In this document: positions 2,641 to 59,830 of the stretch, in pieces
Position numbering within the stretch: the stretch's first letter is position 1
Layout of the letters: each line of letters opens with the position of its first letter
NCBI GenBank assembly: GCA_964016885.1
Contig: OZ024740.1
Span: 306,156,001 to 306,220,000, forward strand
Source: Eledone cirrhosa
Taxonomy: Eukaryota
DNA length: 64,000 nucleotides
Direction: 5' to 3'
The notes under the pieces: model-generated
What the model saw: only the letters and a program-made list of their open reading frames with translations
What the model was told of the DNA's origin: nothing
The model's database searches: none
Position numbers and translations under genes: made by a program

Positions 2641-4005
2641 TCATCATCATCATCTGCGTTTAACGTCCATTTTCCACGCTAGCATGGGTTAGACGGGAGT
2701 TGTCCCACTTGAGGCAAGGTTGGTCGGGTGACCGTGTCTCGTTCATATAGGACTATCTGGTAGGTTTTATACGGCTGCATGCCTTCCTAACACCAACCAC
2801 ATTTACAGTGTGGAACTGGGAACTTTTTACTGTGTTACCTACATGGCCACATTACAGCGTGGACTGTGTGTGTTTTTTGTCATGACACCTACACGATCTC
2901 GATCTCATTATCTCGTGCTGTTGGTGGGAGTGGGAGTATAGGCTAGAGGTAGTGGATTGGGGTGTATATTTGGTTAAGCGGTGCCTACTGACCGTAGGTT
3001 TTGTTTTGTACATAGACAAGGCGGGTCTTCTGTATTACTGCATAGCGCCAAAGATCTCGGTCCAGAGACATTGTCTTAGAGAGATGTAAGTGTGTAAGGT
3101 CGGAATTTATCAGATCATTCCAGGTTTTTCTGGGTCTACCTACTTCATAACTACCATCAACTTTGATCGCCCTGCACTTTTTTATGCAGCTGTCGTCTTT
3201 CATGCACATCATGTGACCATACCAACGTAGTCTTCTCTCAAGTAAACAGCATCTGATCCCTCTTATTCCTAATTTCTCAGTTCATTTATGCTTTGCCGTT
3301 CACGTATATTACTATTACACATCCAACGGAGCATGCATGCTTCATTCCTTTCCAGTCTACGCAGGTCCTCTGCACGTAATGCCCATGTCTCACTGCCATG
3401 TAGCATTGCTGTTCGTATACAGGCATCATACAATCTGCCTTTCATTTTTAGAGAGAAACCTTTTGTGGCCAATAGTGGTAAGCTCTCTGAACTTTTTCCA
3501 TCCCGTTCTGACTCTGGCTACTGTACTTTCAGAACACCCTCCACCACTGCTGATTTCGTAACCCAGGTAACGGAAAGTGTCTACTATTTCTATAGAACCA
3601 TCTGGGCAATAGAAAGAGCTAGTATCCTTTGGACACTTGCTACTTATTGCACCTGAGCATTGGCCACATATAAAGTCTACGTTCTTAGATAGTTTAACTG
3701 TGATCCCACTACATCTTTTATGTACCCATACTTTGCATTTGGGACATAAGATGGAATTTCTGCCTACTCCTTTCCTACACACTGAGCATGGCCATTTCCC
3801 TGAGAGCACCAACTAGAACTTTAGTCTTAGACAAGTTAACTTTAAGGCCTTTTGATTCTAGGCCATGCTTCCATGTTTCGAATTTCTTCTCTAGTTCAGC
3901 CATTGATTCAGCTATGAGCGTTAGATCATGTGCGTATAGGTGTTCCCATGGGCAGCCGGTCTTGAACTCCTCTGTTATAGCCTGAAGGGCAATAATAAAT
4001 AAGAG
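2641..4005 (-). mobile_element. 5'-truncated, frameshifted RTE-clade LINE (RT C-terminal half, PHD-like finger, 3' UTR ending in (GAT)n)
   Basis: ORF pieces [54 protein letters not shown]; homologous to 50321-52093 and 58456-59830. Confidence 0.95.
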
Positions 4006-21724: not shown

Positions 21725-22155
21725 CATCATCATCATCATTTTACGTCCACTTTTCCCTGCTTGCAAGGGTGGGACGGGAACTGATACTGGCTTGATTTCT
21801 ACAGCTGGATGCCCTTCCTAACACCAACCTCATTTACAGTGAGTGCTGGGTGCTTTTTTGCCGTGGCACCTCCACGACCACTTTGCAGTGGAATGATAGG
21901 GACCTCAGTCCCTATCATCTCATTTCTACAGCTGAGTAAACTGGAGCAATGTGAAATAAAGTGTCTTGCTCAAGGAAACAACACATCACTCAGTCTGAGA
22001 ACTGAACTCACAACCTTTCGATTGTAAGGCCAATGCTCTAACCACTAAGCCATGTGCTTCCATATGCTCTAGCCACTAAGCCATGTGCCTCCATATGCTC
22101 TAACCACTAAGCCAAGTGCCTCCATATGCTCTAACCACTAAGCCATGTGCCTCCA
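21725..22155 (-). mobile_element. Full-length tRNA + CORE-like SINE with RTE-derived 3' tail; second copy 39848-40184
   Basis: A-box TGGCTTAGTGG, B-box GAGTTCA, tgtttccttgagcaagacacttt core; tail matches the RTE 3' UTR at 51825-52093. Confidence 0.85.
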
Positions 22156-31371: not shown

Positions 31372-33432
31372 TATATATATTTGAATAATAATAGTCAACT
31401 ACAATAAATAACAGCTGAGAAAACAGGTAAAGTATCTCTGGAGACAAAAAAAAGTGGTCAGAGGCACGTTTGTCTAATTATTTCCATCTCCAGGGTTACT
31501 TTACATGATTTTCTCAGCTGTTATTTATAAGTCACTGACTATTATTATGGTCATTTGCGTTGGGATGGCTACATTTCCAATTTTCTCAATGCCAACCAGT
31601 TCTACACACGGTTTATTTAAACTGAATTCTTTTTCTTGTGGGTTTCATGCCACTGTTCATAGTAGTATGAAACTCAAGCAGCCAGAAAATAAACAATGTA
31701 CTCTATCATCTAGTACTCTCGTCTGTTTCCATTGATAAACTGTAATATTTGAGTATGTGTATATCTGCGTATATGTGTGTATACATGCATGTCTATATAA
31801 ACTACCAATTATCTAGTCAAGACCAAACCAGGTACAATTGGCCCAATTTGCTACTGTGTAAAACAACAAGCATTTTAAAGCTGTCTTTCCTGCAGGCTGT
31901 ATGATCAGCTTCTCTGCATCCTTCTTCTCCAATACCCTGGCTTCCATTTTTTCTTTCATTATTTTTAGTTATGTTGTTCTTGGTCTTCCCCTTCCATTAC
32001 TTCCTTCCATGTTCCCTTCACTCCTCTCACTCAGTCACTTTCATCCTTATTCCATTTCCCTTCACAACATTCACCACAGGTTTTATTCTTGTCATCCTCT
32101 GCAATTTATTGTTTGTCTTCCCCCCTCTCTCTCTCTATGATACTTCACTAATCCACCAGGCCATTCTCATTTCCATTCTTTCCAGCCTTCTCTCACCATG
32201 TCTTGCTCCTATAAATCATCACATTTCTCATACATGCAACATATACCTTTCCCTTCAGTTTCAGTGACAGTCCCCTCAGTAACACACCACTCAGTTACCG
32301 GAACTTCTACATATAGTTGCAAGAGCCTGTCACACCTTTATTCAACATGTCCCTAAAGTAACAAAACATTTTCACACCTTCCATCTTCACTATTCCTAAG
32401 ATCCAGCTCAAATTTTCTCCATACTCACTTTACATTTAAATGTAGCTGCTGTATTATTTAATAATTCCTTCACATCACTACACTGTCAATCTACCTATCC
32501 AGTGTTAACTTATACATTTAATGGAGTTCACTTTAACACCCTTTCTGCACACTACACATGGTTATCTTCCTCTTTCCAATATTCACCTCCATACTTTTTG
32601 CATCCATATATTCCTTTAATATTTCATCATCTTCAATCCTTCCATACTCATCTGTGTATGGCAACTCCCATGGTAAGCCCTCCTTTACACTTCAGGCCAG
32701 TACCTCTATCATAACTACTAATAGCCTTTACTTCAAACTCAGCACTGTTCTTGTCCTTCATCCTTATGACTGTAAGTGCATTCACATACATTCTTATCAC
32801 TACACTAACCAACCATTTCTCTACTCCCAACTCTTTCAATGCCCATCTTCAAGTACAACCCAATTGAAAACTTTATCCAGATCAACAAACCTGAAAAACA
32901 AATTCTTCCTCTTGTCCATATATTTCTGTAATTACATCAGTAATTCCTTTTCTCAACATAAATCCCAAACTGCATTTTATCAATATAAATGTTTTCCCTT
33001 ATCCTCTCCTCTAACACTCTTTCTATATGAGCCACTGTCTAAAGGATCACTCTTTTCCTTGTGTACAGAGATGAGAGAACTCAACACCCAATCTACTGAA
33101 ATATGATTTTCATATATACATATATATCTATATATAGTATGTATGTATATGTGTACGCATGTGTGTGTATAAATATGACCACCACCTCTGGCTTTATTGC
33201 TTGTGGTATGATGGCTAAGTAGTGATCCCTTCTGCCCAATGCCAGCCAAAGTCCCCCTGGAAAAAAAATATAGACAATAATCTTGTGTGTGTGTGTATAA
33301 AGTTATACCTGTATAGAGTGTGTAACCAAGTCTGCACCAACATGTATGGATATATACACATATCTAATATGTAGGCATGTAAACATGCTGGAAAATATGA
33401 ATTTCGCTGTAAATTAAAAAAAAATCATAAAT

Positions 33433-33477
33433 ATCTTAAATTGATTTTCGGATCTAATTGGACCCTCATCAGAAGAT
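33433..33477 (-). ncRNA. Minimal type I hammerhead ribozyme motif, intact core, sense to the ex pre-mRNA
   Basis: AUCUU-CUGAUGA-GGGUC(CAAUUA)GAUCC-GAAA-AUCAAU-UU-AAGAU; all three stems pair. Confidence 0.75.
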
Positions 33478-34459
33478 GAGTATATAATCCTATCAACCAC
33501 AAGAAAACGTGTATTTGATGGATGTTTATATCCATTGGATGTACTATGAGTGTGTATGTTTATTTACACACCATCACCACTGGATCTGGTTGTTATTGCT
33601 CATCAATTATTATTTCTTTTGATTTCTATTAATTCTTTTTAACCAACTTCTTTGGTTAACTATTTTATGGGTTTTTTTTAAATATTTGTTTCTTTCTCTA
33701 AGGCTTAAGATATTTTCTTTAAAAGCAATTTTTTTTTCCTGGACTCCAATTTCCTTTTCTTTTTTGTGACCCCTGCCCATAAAAAAATTCTTATATGGAC
33801 CCCGGTTGAGAATCGCTGCTTTACACGGTTTACTTGATTCCCCATATCACACTACCACTTTAAAAAAGGGAAAGGGAGAACACATTGGATAATATTGTTT
33901 TAGATATATTATGGCTTAAAAAAAAAAAAACAAATGTGTTGGACATAGCTGGAAAGCCTTTGATCATAAGAGTGTTCAATCAGAGCTGACCTGAGGTTAA
34001 AATACATCGATTACTGTCTGCTCTACTGCCATGTAAATGGTGCTGGAGTAGTTCAATGGTTTAGCCAGCACAGGTATTACTAGACAAATATTCAACTATG
34101 AATCCTACATTATACACACATATACATTCAATTCAGATATTTAAACCTTTCATTAACATAATTTTAAAAAAAATTAAAATATTGCGTTTGAATTAAATAA
34201 AGAATTTGTTGGGTATTTACTAAAATGATGATTTCATTATTTAGATGGCTTTTGTAAACATAAAAGGTTCTTATATAAAAATTATGTTGGAAGATTTTAA
34301 TTTAAATAGGAAGCCTTTAAAATGGGTATTTTATTTCTATAGAACCAGCAGGTAGTATCAAAATGGTTAAGTATGCACACAAACTATCAGTTACAATCTT
34401 TCAACATCTGCAATAAGTGCACAGGCTTGAAAAAGCAAAAACACAGTAAGAATACTTAC

Positions 34460-50290: not shown

Positions 50291-50320
<30 letters not shown>

Positions 50321-50327
<7 letters not shown>

Positions 50328-52093
50328 GTAAAGGCGATGCACTAGATAGAGGAAACTATAGAGGTATAAAGTTGATGGACCAGGTCATGAAAGTAACAGA
50401 AAGAGTTATAGCACAGCTGATTAGGGACCGGGTGAAAATAGACGAGATGCAATTTGGGTTTGTACCAGGGAAAGGCACCACTGATGCCCTCTTCCTTGTG
50501 AGGCAATTACAGAAAAAGTACCTAGCTAAAAGTAAGCCACTCTACTTGGCATTTGTCGACCTTGAGAAAGCCTTTGACAGAGTTCCACGCGCTGTAATCT
50601 GGTGGGCTCTTAGAAAACTAGGAGTAGATGAATGGCTTGTGAAAGCGGTACAAGCCATGTATAGGGGAGCAGTCAGCAAAGTTAGGATTAGCAATGAGTA
50701 TAGCGAGGAATTTAGCGTACAGGTTGGGGTCCACCAGGGCTCTGTTCTTAGCCCTCTCCTGTTCATCATAGTCCTGCAGGCAATAACGGAGGAGTTTAAG
50801 ACCGGATGCCCATGGGAACTCCTGTATGCTGATGACCTCGCACTCATAGCTGAATCTATGGTAGAACTAGAGAATAAATTCCAAACCTGGAAGCAGGGAC
50901 TAGAAAGAAAGGGTCTCAAAGTCAACATGACAAAGACTAAGGTCCTTGTAAGTAGACGAGAAAACAGAACCCAGATCCCCTCAGGGAAATGGCCTTGCTC
51001 AGTATGTAGGAAAGGTGTAGGTAGGAACTCCATTCTCTGCCCCAAATGCAAACAATGGGTACACAAGAGATGTAGCGGGATCTCAGGAAGCTTAATTAAG
51101 AATGTAGGATTCACATGCAGCAGCTGTGCTGAGACAGCAAACAGCAAACAGCCACAGGAAACAAGTACCACCAATCTCTGGGAGGGCCCTGTAGAAACAG
51201 TTGACAGCTTCTGCTACCTAGGTGACTGAATTAGCAATGGAGGTGGGTGTTCAGAAAGTGCAATAACTAGGGTAAGAACGGGATGGAAGAAGTTTAGGGA
51301 ACTACTACCACTGCTAGCTGCAAAAGGCTTCTCCCTCAGAATGAAAGGCAGACTGTATGATGCGTGTATCCGAACAGCGATGTTGCATGGTAGCGAGACC
51401 TGGGCGCTGAAGGTGGAAGACTTACGTAGATTAGAGAGAAACGAAGCCTGCATGCTCCGATGGATGTGTAACAATAATATATGTGAACGACAAAGCATAA
51501 ATGAATTGAGAGAGAGACTGAGCATAAGAGGAATCAAATGCTGTGTGCAGGAGAGGCGATTGCGCTGGTATGGACATGTGATGCGTATGAAGGATGATAG
51601 CTGCATAAAAAGGTGCAGAGCACTAGAAGTTGATGGAAACCGCAGAGTGGGGAGACCCAAGATGACCTGGGATGAGGTGATAAAAGCCGACCTTATCCAA
51701 TTACACCTCTCAAAGACAATGACACACGACCGTGACTTCTGGCGTCACGCAGTAATACAGAGTACCCGACCTCCCATGGGTACAAGCTGAAGCATATAGA
51801 CAATATGCCCCCACGCCCCCCACCGCAAGGTGGTCGTGGAGGTGCCACGGCAAAAAAGCACCCAGCCCACACTGTAAAGTGGACGTGTAGGCGCCACGAA
51901 AAAGCACCCAGCACTCACTGTAAATGAGGTTGGTGTTAGGAAGGGCATCCAGCTGTAGAAACCAAGCCAAATCAGTTCCTGTATGAGCAAGGCATGGTCA
52001 GCCGACCAGACACTGCCCACAACAGGACAACCCGTCTAACCCATGCTAGCGTGGAAGAACGGACGTAAAACGGTGATGATGATGATGATGATG
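50321..52093 (+). mobile_element. 5'-truncated RTE-clade LINE, young copy: RT domain, internal PHD-type finger, one in-frame TGA, 3' UTR with (GAT)n tail
   Basis: KGKGDALDRGNYRGIKL, FVDLEKAFD, GVHQGSVLSPLLF, LLYADD; ORFs 50102-51229 and 51341-51790 share a frame, split only by TGA at 51227-51229. Confidence 0.97.
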
Positions 52094-55122: not shown

Positions 55123-55130
<8 letters not shown>

Positions 55131-55858
55131 ATGCTTTGGGAGCGTCATGTTGCCAATAAGAAACACATACACCAGCTACTTTCACTCCAATTTATTATAA
55201 ATTAAATTTATAAATTTCCGGTTGGTTGGTTGGTTCCATAACCGGACGGTTGTTCATATATTATCAAAGTTCTTTTGTCACACATTCTGTGACCTCTTCA
55301 GTGACTGGGGATTCTTTTCTTTGTTTTGTGCCTCTCCTTTGTTCTGTCCTACTCCATCTTGTTTTTGTGTGTGTTGTGTGCTTAGTTTGCGCATGTGTTA
55401 CATCCGGGTGTCTGTGTGTGTTTTTATTTGTCTATTTACATGCCACTGGTTGGCTGCCTGCTCCACGTGTGTGTGTGCCTTCACTTAGTCCCCAACTGCA
55501 CGCTGTGATGTTGCTATTCCACCCATGTTTTCTATTTAACTCCGGCTGGAGTTCATCTATGTTATACAAATAAAACACACACAGACACCCGGATGTAACA
55601 CATGCGCAAACTAAGCACACAACACACACAAAAACAAGATGGCGTAGGACAGAACAAAGGAGAGGCACAAAACAAAGAAAAGATTCCCCAGTCACTGAAG
55701 AGGTCACAGAATGTGTGACGAAAGAACTTTGACAATATATGAACAACCGTCCGGTTATGGAACCAACCAACCAACCGGAAATTTATAATAAATTGGAGTG
55801 AAAGCAACTGGTGCGTGTTTCTTATTGGCAACATGACCCTCCCAAAGCATAACAATAT
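55123..55858. mobile_element. Fold-back element with ~300-bp inverted arms, each carrying a hammerhead
   Basis: 55123-55431 is the reverse complement of 55566-55858 (few mismatches); (TA)n on the left and after 55915. Confidence 0.92.
55691..55733 (+). ncRNA. Minimal type I hammerhead motif (intact core, extra G after A9); inverted twin 55263-55305 has GAAA>AAAA
   Basis: GUCA-CUGAAGA-G-GUCACA(GAAUG)UGUGAC-GAAA-GAAC-UU-UGAC. Confidence 0.75.
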
Positions 55859-55929
55859 CGGTTTCAACACACGTTTTCAGATAAAGAATCTTGCTAAACA
55901 AATTCGGAAACAAAATATATATATATATT

Positions 55930-56640
55930 TAATAAAGTATGAATACCTACGCGTAAAAAATACATATAGGGAAACAAGTATTATCCAACCGTATGCCAAT
56001 GTGGTTCTATGGCGGGTTAATAAATTAACAGGCCAGAACATATAAAATCGAGGTCTGGAGCATGAAACCGTGGAAAAGGCACATATAGTAAGTACAGCGA
56101 ATTTTTAAAAATTTATTTTAAAACTTTTTCTCTATTTGCTAGACTTCGATTTTATATGTTCTGGCTTGTTCATTTATTAACCCGCCATAGAACCACATTG
56201 GCATACGGTTGGATAATACTTGTTTCCCTATATGTATTTTTTACACGTAGGAATTCATACTTTATTATTATTGATCTACCCCTAAGGTAGAGATACAATT
56301 TTGGCTGTTTGGACTGCTGCTATTTCTAGTGGTAGGACATTGACTTGTCCACCCTGCCTTTTGTCTTTGCACATGGCACCAGACAGAATTATTTCTTTCA
56401 TTATCTGCTCTCATGTGGGAATGGTTTTGTATGGCATCAGTTTGTGATTTGAACTTGGGAATTTTATATTCTCCGAAGGAGAAGAGCCTTCTGAAGATTG
56501 CTCCATTCTCAATGAAATCTGCTTGGATTTTCCATTTATTCTGGAGCATGAAACCGCGGTAAAGACAAATATAGTAAGTACAGCGAATTTTTTTAAATGT
56601 ATTTTAAAACTTTTTCTCTATTTGCTAGACCTTAATTTTA
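55930..56640 (+). mobile_element. Hammerhead element: ~1.2 tandem units of 486 nt preceded by an inverted 127-bp segment
   Basis: direct repeat 56055-56144 / 56541-56630; inverted repeat 55930-56056 / 56141-56267. Confidence 0.88.
56486..56566 (+). ncRNA. Type I hammerhead motif with palindromic stem III
   Basis: GCCUU-CUGAAGA-U-UGCUCCA...UGGAGCA-U-GAAA-CCGCGG-UA-AAGAC; GUA triplet. Confidence 0.78.
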
Positions 56641-56716
56641 TAAATATATATCATTTCATCATCATCATCATCATTTCATTTTACGTCCACTTTTCCCTGC
56701 TTGCAAGGGTGGGACG

Positions 56717-58455: not shown

Positions 58456-59830
58456 CATCATCATCATCATCATCATCAACGTTTAACGTCCGTGTTCCAC
58501 GCTTGCATGGGTTTGGACGGGGGTAGTCCCACTTGAGGCAAGAGTGATTGTCTTGCTCGCATAGGACTGTCTGGCAGGTTTTCTACAGTTGGATGCCCTT
58601 CCTAACACCAACCACATTTACAGTGTGGGTCTGGGAGGTTTTTACCGTGTTGCCTACACGGCCACATTACAGCGTGGACTGTGTGTTTTTTTGTCGTGAC
58701 ACCTACACGATCTCATTTGTTTTGGCCTCGATGGCGCGGCACCAACATAACTTTACATAGAACGGGGTGGTGTGGATCGGGTGGGGGTGGGGGTGGTGGG
58801 ACGGGGTGTATTTTGTTAGAGATGCCTACTGGCTGGAGTAGGTTTTACTATATATTTAGGTAAGGCGGGTCTTCTCTGTTACTGAGTACCGCCAAAGGTC
58901 TCGGTCCAGTGACATTGTCTTGGAGAGGTGTAAGTGTGTGATGTCGGAGTTTATCAGCTCGTCCCAGGTTTTTCTAGGTCTGCCTATTCCGTGACTACCG
59001 TCTATCTTTATTGCCCTGCACTTTGTTATACAGCTATCGACTTTCATGCGCATCACGTGTCCATACCAACGTAGCCTTCTCTCGAGTAAACAACATCTGA
59101 TCCCTCTTATCTCTAATTTATTCCTTAGTTCGTTTATGCTTTGCCGTTCACGTATATTACTGTTACACATCCAGCGGAGCATGCAAGCTTCGTTCCTCTC
59201 TAGTCTGCGTATATCCTCTGCACACAATGCCCAGGTCTCACTGCCATGCAGCATTGCTGTTCGTATGCAGGCATCGTACAACCTGCCTTTCATTTTTAGT
59301 GAGAACCCTTTAGCAGCTAATAGTGGTATAAGCTCTCTGAACTTTTTCCAACCAGTTCTGACTCTAGCTACAGTACTTTCAGAGCACCCTCCCCCACTGC
59401 TGATTTTATCGCCCAGGTAACGGAAGCTGTCCACTATTTCTATAGAACCCTCTGCGCAATTGAAAGAGCTAGTAGTTTGTGGGCACTTGCTGCTACTTAT
59501 TGCACCAGAGCACCGGCCACATGTAAAATCTATGTTCTTAGTTAGCTTACCTGTGATCCCACTACATCTTTTATGCACCCATACTTTGCATTTAGGACAT
59601 AAAATGGAGTTTCTACCTACGCCTTTCCTACACACCGAGCACGACCATTTCCCCGAAGGGACCGCCGCCTTGTTTTCTTTCCTACAAACTAGTACTTTGG
59701 TCTTAGCCAGGTTAATTTTAAGTCCTTTTGACTCTAGGCCGTGCTTCCATGTTTGGAATTTCTTCTCTAGCTCGGCCATTGATTCCGCTATGAGTGTCAG
59801 GTCGTCTGCGTATAGGAGTTCCCATGGGCA
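58456..59830 (-). mobile_element. 5'-truncated RTE LINE with open frame from [10 protein letters not shown] to the natural stop, plus 3' UTR
   Basis: the C-terminal ~325 aa of ORF 58856-61378 are RT/PHD/thumb; the 3' UTR ends in (GAT)n at 58456. Confidence 0.96.

Follow-up and report, generated by a model that had tools for sequence, protein, structure and literature searches.

Metazoan non-LTR retrozymes are tandem repeats of type I hammerhead ribozymes that are expressed as circular RNAs (Cervera and de la Pena 2020, PMC7229834), and their mobilization from the retrozyme circle by Penelope-like elements (PLEs) was proposed in 2020 (PMC7229834; also PMC5680766 on retrozymes). Li, Clavereau and Pollet (2026, 10.64898/2026.07.22.740005) backed a PLE origin in vertebrates with co-occurrence and pLTR likeness; among their Xenopus dimers, 1/9 was cleaved and 8/9 were not. 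Reverse transcription of animal retrozyme circles by PLE enzymes is thereby proposed and supported, and the step itself is not shown in the parts of the cited papers considered here, to which all our comparisons refer. PLEs insert as tandem-plus-inverted copies with a tail of 30-40 bp at one end (Craig et al. 2021, PMC8557442). In vitro, Poseidon of Anolis extends both strands from two internal start sites that define the tail; it needs no ribozyme, and uncut RNA is its main substrate (Frangieh et al. 2024, PMC11167929). Palindromic hammerhead helices III have been explained by cleavage as dimers, and PLE motifs are of low activity (PMC4209133).

Here we describe a hammerhead-bearing insertion in a 64,000-nt stretch of Eledone cirrhosa DNA (the window, G000:C1:306156001-306220000 of the 3.0-Gb assembly that we searched) and the 487-nt family to which it belongs. 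Judged by its sequence, the family is a non-autonomous hammerhead retrozyme with a sharp Penelope footprint. Our preferred reading, to which we assign a probability of about 0.6, is that the window copy is a hammerhead repeat inserted by a Neptune- or Nematis-type Penelope-like enzyme that worked from both sides of a break and off a circular monomer.

As in metazoan non-LTR retrozymes, each repeat is non-coding, carries a single type I hammerhead and is low in GC (38%, below 45-50%); copies range from monomers to long head-to-tail arrays, the circle is predicted to be highly self-paired, and autonomous PLEs co-occur. Axolotl HHR_Amex2 likewise combines a 2-bp helix III with a U.U at the foot of helix II. 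The unit is longer than the 170-400 nt of PMC7229834 and falls within the 51-972 bp of 10.64898/2026.07.22.740005. It departs from these retrozymes in its helix II, to which an internal loop and a distal helix are added, and in its copies, which are mostly 5'-truncated, permuted and back-to-back, and lie in (TA)n with two fixed ends; the main text of PMC7229834 does not contain the word 'inverted'. No pLTR homology between the family and the local PLEs sampled was found. With endonuclease-bearing (EN+) PLEs, and with Neptune/Nematis-type pLTRs, it shares a partial tandem joined to an inverted, 5'-truncated copy, a tail at one end, microsatellite targets and a type I hammerhead with a palindromic helix III and a short helix I. 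It differs from them in lacking an ORF and the G10.1-C11.1 pair, and its tail measures 111 nt, as against the 30-40 bp of PMC8557442 and approximately 45-67 nt in the local autonomous elements.

In the literature covered, which lay mostly outside subscription journals and Repbase, we found no cephalopod retrozyme and no retrozyme with a rule of one site per end; the 487-nt family may already be listed in Repbase or in the supplements of the 2026 preprint. The end rule is its main value, and the lone, decayed window copy is of little interest. The insertions record the footprint of an enzyme at base resolution: where it inserts, the two sites at which it starts, its nearly strict use of one site per end and its clean passage across the cut site. 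The family thus offers a defined RNA, start sites, a target and, in the genome that carries it, candidate intact proteins with which rolling-circle target-primed reverse transcription can be tested, and it bears on the origin of PLE tails and inversions.

The window copy and its family

The original prediction had divided the locus into segments in the order D, E, D', F, E with D inverted, and this order is exact (Table 1; the second E is called E'). E and E' are 103 nt each, 90% alike and spaced by 486 nt, and D and D' are one segment of the unit on opposite arms. In unit coordinates, in which u1 is the first base after the predicted cut, the A arm starts at u466, passes twice across the cut site and stops at the fixed End A (u81-82). 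As had been claimed, the first E holds only the 3' half of the ribozyme core, cut inside stem II at the inversion: it begins within the helix II 3' strand, at the TCT microhomology with the inverted arm, and its cut triplet has changed from GUA to GAA and is lost.

Table 1. Layout of the insertion in the window
Feature	Position	Strand or basis
(AT)7 target and left flank; also TA flank of the neighbouring Penelope-like remnant	55915..55928	sequence
B arm (D, inverted): 127 nt, u66-u192, stops at fixed End B	55930..56056	-
Head-to-head junction of the arms, 3-nt microhomology TCT	56054..56056	
A arm (E, D', F, E'): 590 nt, 1.2 units	56054..56642	+
Hammerhead 3' half, truncated in helix II, mutated cut triplet	56054..56080	+
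Segments of the A arm	E 56054-56156; D' up to 56268; then F; E' 56540-56642	+
111-nt 'tail' from End A to End B, opening with hairpin 56158-56193	56157..56268	+
One full unit, cut site to cut site, 486 nt in this copy	56076..56561	+
Type I hammerhead, whole	56486..56566	+
Palindromic helix III ACCGCGGU, predicted cut after 56561	56553..56560	+
Short (TA)n flank at End A	56643..56651	

In helix I of the whole ribozyme, a private G>A change (AAGAC in the window, AAGGC in the family) introduces one mismatch, and the constrained fold of this ribozyme is predicted at -9.9 kcal/mol, compared with -22.7 for the family majority. Because just one whole ribozyme is present, and that one is mismatched in helix I, the window copy is a decayed insertion that is unable to release a monomer. 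The suggestion of a non-coding unit of approximately 486 nt that replicates as a monomer is supported, with limits. The unit has no ORF, and a circular or multimeric template fits; the length is right for the window copy, whereas the family unit is 487 nt, and this copy cannot itself give a monomer. 'Replicating' here means retrotransposition, and the evidence nowhere shows RNA-to-RNA replication. With a B arm of 127 nt and an A arm of 590 nt, the window copy is typical of its family.

A 26-mer over the 3' half of the ribozyme had 138 exact matches in the assembly, compared with 0 for its reversed control, and a 29-mer over the End A junction had 139 (control, 0); a 201-nt query returned 1,644 candidates, 40 of which were scored. 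Copies diverge by 3.3% from the majority sequence, and at this divergence the exact-match counts lead to an estimate of approximately 300-400 copies. The longest ATG frame is 78 aa, even on a doubled unit. The circular monomer, folded from the majority sequence, has a predicted MFE of -131 compared with -102 +/- 5 for 40 shuffles (z -5.5), and the tail by itself folds no better than its shuffles (z -1.0 and -1.6). There was no A>G bias in the family that would mark RNA editing (6.2 versus 6.3 per kb). Six of 183 family segments, from five loci (L015, L031, L032, L035 and L037), start exactly at u287, where transcription might begin or where the reverse transcriptase might stop on reaching the foot of a hairpin.

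Fixed ends and the one-site-per-end rule

To describe the ends we use a map of 112 insertions, from which 14 listed loci (duplicates and three array loci) and insertions at locus edges were dropped, and in which the segmental duplicate L093 is counted twice. End A (class u76-86) and End B (class u184-202) lie 111 nt apart, and both are UA-rich patches that resemble the (TA)n target. (TA)n flanks were found on the left of 96/112 insertions and on the right of 98/112. Back-to-back insertions make up 57 of the 112: 41 are A+B, there is one each of A+A and B+B, and in 14 an end lies at another position. Among the 43 in which both ends could be assigned, the two arms use different sites in 41 (P = 2e-10 if each arm chose its site freely). 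A further 54 run in a single direction, with 46 stopping at End A, 5 at End B and 3 at other positions, and 1 is complex. Since a sole surviving arm is nearly always the A arm, A is likely to be the first priming event. The 5' ends are scattered along the whole unit, the copies being 5'-truncated; short arms are under-represented in this map because ribozyme queries chose the sample. Where the arms meet, 27/34 two-segment A+B insertions have an overlap of 1-9 nt, and the arms overlap in unit coordinates in 31/34 simple A+B insertions.

The pattern recalls two known reactions. In L1 twin priming, an inverted segment is made by priming from both DNA ends, and the family is alike in this respect; its arms, in contrast, both begin at fixed internal sites. 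Twin priming of the L1 type was rejected as the source of the inversions, as just 2/34 simple A+B insertions stop at the B site and the arms overlap in the 31 mentioned above. The second is that of the Anolis Poseidon enzyme (PAc), with two internal starts that define a tail, cutting and extension of both strands, an AT-rich target and a predicted dimer (PMC11167929). The start site of PAc, as described there, shows no strand difference and no homology to the target, whereas the 487-nt family uses different, UA-rich sites on its two arms.

The same ends recur in related families. Over its full length, family B (457-467 nt) aligns with the 487-nt unit at a score of 166, where the best of 200 shuffles reached 50.5; its two ends, at u87 and u192, are the same, and it obeys the A+B rule. 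Older families of 489 nt and 519 nt (L323, L337 and their neighbours), whose hammerheads also have a long helix II, have End A and the adjoining hairpin in common with the 487-nt unit (539 matches), and close to them are further hammerheads of this kind with other palindromes. We infer that the tail hairpin is a candidate recognition site for the reverse transcriptase. Another tandem family is represented by six short hammerheads approximately 470-510 nt apart at L123:4068-6496, and was seen once more in L125.

The hammerhead and its template

The original prediction had placed a full ribozyme across the F-E junction (56486-56566), and a type I hammerhead lies exactly there, with a 5-bp helix I (GCCUU/AAGAC), the core CUGAAGA...GAAA and a helix II that pairs 56499-56505 with 56542-56548. 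The general features of the type are present: a CUGANGA core, GAAA, UH, three helices and an open helix I. A U.U lies at the foot of helix II, which goes on beyond an internal loop as a distal helix. Stem III had been called perfectly palindromic, and it is so over 8 nt; helix III has 2 bp and a CGCG loop, and its predicted self-duplex amounts to -16.1 kcal/mol. Among 91 insertions with the whole motif, the core is intact in 82, and core plus helix I in 55. In a set of 10 related sequences, chosen for diversity from the 487-nt family and family B, 8/19 hammerhead pairs are altered on both sides across subfamilies (among them 5/6 pairs in helix II and 2/5 in helix I), and 97% of the cells of this alignment are paired, compared with 24-52% in slid controls; owing to the relatedness of the sequences, counts against shuffles do not amount to a probability here. 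A pattern search for the architecture with a long helix II gave 961 matches. Helix III is palindromic in six different sequences (that of the 487-nt family and five in related motifs) and perfectly so in 26/38 related motifs, and family B has an odd-length near-palindrome. Retention of the palindrome across families fits selection for dimer cleavage, and, because the helices covary and the palindrome is kept, cleavage itself appears to be under selection. It may be weak: where helix II starts, the 487-nt family and family B both have U.U instead of the conserved G10.1-C11.1 pair (PMC4209133); in several older relatives this position is occupied by G-C or G.U. The Rfam hammerhead models gave no match in 55600-56660 at E<=10, and at E<=1 over the whole window no hammerhead was among the matches listed, which were mostly microsatellite miRNA. 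The long helix II is probably the cause of this miss.

We asked what RNA the insertions were copied from by following arms across the cut site. In a sample of End A loci unselected for the ribozyme (30 returned, one duplicate dropped, 29 used), 26/29 arms run past the cut site and 0/29 start within 5 nt of it, and 172/176 junctions cross the site without an indel. This rules out a cut linear monomer as the usual template, because cDNA primed at A on such a monomer would end within 82 nt. As the cDNAs pass through the ribozyme cut site, the template is likely to be a circle or an uncut multimer, and the permutation of the genomic copies, which the original prediction had named as a check, agrees with such a template of approximately 487 nt. 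Few 5' ends lie at the cut site (8/183 within u485-u8, approximately 4 expected; a u2-u78 piece is found in L222), and a small fraction of cut template is possible. Rare alleles were compared in 98 insertions in which every segment is at least 92% like the majority. Both arms had 37/257 of them in common (4.6 expected) and successive passes had 24/193 (2.9 expected), which shows that arms and passes have a common donor and does not distinguish a circle from a multimer.

Two long arrays bear on that distinction. The family B array L201/L202 (G000:C1:156425779-156438442) is a 12.7-kb inverted array of 457-nt units in one (TA)n insertion, with 19 units running to End A and 9 to End B. Its units are 99.8% alike and 17/26 whole units are identical; two private alleles occur on both arms, including the end units, and one of these has 28 matches genome-wide, which are all 28 ribozymes of this array. 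The array favours rolling-circle copying and is the best candidate for a one-step rolling-circle insertion that we found in the assembly. Two adjacent units share two changes and five units share one, so some later turnover has taken place, and growth after insertion could have occurred. Such growth is seen in L091/L092 (G000:C1:176443890-176453340), a 19-unit head-to-tail array of the 487-nt family between TA tracts, in which pairwise identity is approximately 89% and internal units are homogenized in blocks. Because its block-wise alleles are absent from the end units, its sequence indicates that this 19-mer grew at least partly after insertion. It was set aside as proof of rolling-circle copying, and it was also rejected as the donor of the dispersed copies, since its alleles occur in 1-2 of 73-108 others.

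It is plausible, though in our judgement less likely, that the same element and enzyme used an uncut linear dimer or multimer, with arrays lengthening later by unequal crossover and the ribozyme being weak or acting elsewhere. Such a template predicts read-through of the cut site equally well. Dimer donors exist, as two whole ribozymes are held by 15/183 family segments, and also by the 19-unit array (the window copy has one); turnover after insertion is evident in that array, and Poseidon mainly uses uncut RNA in vitro (PMC11167929). Linear copying with 5' truncation, however, would be expected only to shorten the family. The private alleles of L201/L202 are on both arms up to the end units and have no donor elsewhere in the assembly, and the covarying helices and kept palindrome suggest that cleavage is selected. 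Weighing these points, we put a circle over an uncut multimer at about 2 to 1.

Under the preferred reading of a circular template, a tandem copy would be transcribed, two hammerheads paired through the palindromic helix III would release a monomer, and a host ligase would close the circle. The GIY-YIG endonuclease would cleave both strands within (TA)n. One nicked end would then prime at site A, which is UA-rich; the other would use B, located 111 nt downstream, as expected of a dimeric enzyme that holds two sites. Each cDNA would cross the sealed cut site and end at a variable point, and the 5' ends of the two arms would join head to head, mostly through microhomology of 1-9 nt. A more specific version, which we hold tentatively and at somewhat less than even odds, is that a dimeric Penelope-type reverse transcriptase grips the ribozyme-made circle at A and B, one for each DNA end (A, then B), and circles from both sides of the break. 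The tail hairpin would be recognized, not pLTR homology, and the whole clan (457-519 nt) would ride one enzyme.

Autonomous Penelope-like elements and the remaining alternatives

Elements with a reverse transcriptase and a GIY-YIG domain are numerous in the genome (150 of 10,597 candidates were scored). In L102, L103 and L105 the domain order with a C-terminal GIY-YIG was seen together with the linker; RVT_1 scores below the Pfam cut-off in two of three long autonomous ORFs. The autonomous elements carry a CX4CxxC linker that is common to the Neptune and Nematis clades (PMC8557442), and we therefore assign them provisionally, from sequence, to one of these two types. One of these autonomous elements stops in (TA)n at either of two sites that are separated by 67 nt. 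Its B end was found at 30/30 loci, a count favoured by the query, and an opposed arm at 14/30; all 14 opposed arms stop at its A site and B+B was not seen. The non-coding units and the autonomous element thus share their target and end rule. The layout had been described as a signature of Penelope-type insertions, and this holds: both have targets in (TA)n, a pair of fixed 3' ends and opposed arms that are truncated independently of each other. The autonomous Neptune-type element (L111:2590-2645, L281-L310) carries a hammerhead-like motif in which U and A take the place of the C3-G8 pair and helix III is a palindromic ACCGGU. Many short copies begin approximately 30 nt past a TATA-like box, as if from a pLTR promoter.

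The units could instead be ordinary pseudo-LTR remnants of an unsampled or extinct autonomous PLE, an explanation that we regard as improbable. Their ends, tail, inversions and targets match PLE insertions (PMC8557442), opposed hammerhead pairs 100-700 bp apart occur in PLE pieces of Schistosoma (PMC4209133), and the GIY-YIG candidates were scored for the subset given above. Against this, the upstream side of the ribozyme returns to the tail of the unit and not to the end of an ORF, as seen in arms of up to 1,195 nt and in arrays of 19 units. The original prediction had stated that attachment of all other copies to full PLE ORFs would speak against it, which is not what we found. The flanks were unique at 30/30 family loci, and tblastn with three local Neptune-type PLE proteins, over 1.5-3 kb around the copies sampled, matched 2/219 family loci (overlapping loci included), in both cases at PLE sequence at least 0.8 kb away across a microsatellite. 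No examined copy carries or adjoins a reverse transcriptase and GIY-YIG ORF.

A search for a parent, which sampled the PLE families partially, found none by blastn and nhmmer against 59 PLE loci. Local alignment to the 3' ends of seven autonomous elements gave no score above shuffles (best, 15 of 200). One element has in common with the unit a stretch of 11 nt that runs from the core into helix II, together with a 15-nt sequence resembling End B, not above shuffles, and the 3' end of a second Neptune-type family, used as a DNA query, returned no candidates. A ribozyme pair downstream of an ORF at L104/L111 was considered as a parent pLTR and rejected, as it is a sister non-coding unit nested in the TA flank of the element there.

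Finally, a DNA-level satellite, fold-back element or assembly artefact with a chance ribozyme-like motif, to which the location of copies in long tracts of TA (in which inversions arise through assembly and DNA repair) and the lack of an Rfam hammerhead match might point, is highly improbable and largely refuted by the A+B rule and the covariation: the arms are not mirror images, having different fixed ends and independent truncation, the hammerhead alignment is almost fully paired, and contigs of three public runs of one sample, possibly the source of the assembly and uninformative on RNA, contain the family at depth.

Several other features were observed in the window. The 487-nt element is inserted in the (TA)n flank of a separate Penelope-like remnant (55123-55913) that is inverted and 5'-truncated, with one arm approximately 50 nt longer than the other. 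The end of its ORF on the minus arm reads IDELQPELNRKHGW, it has a short hammerhead motif of its own near 55692-55735, and other genomic copies are 80-93% identical to it. A further type I hammerhead-like motif lies on the minus strand at 33430-33480. A short repeat led by (CAT)n is dispersed at 21725, 39847, 52033, 54771, 56663 and 58129, and one copy adjoins End A of the element. LINE-like reverse-transcriptase fragments, which we take to be RTE-like, are found at 50300-51790, 58856-59700 and 3217-3812, some of them broken by long TA/TACA tracts.
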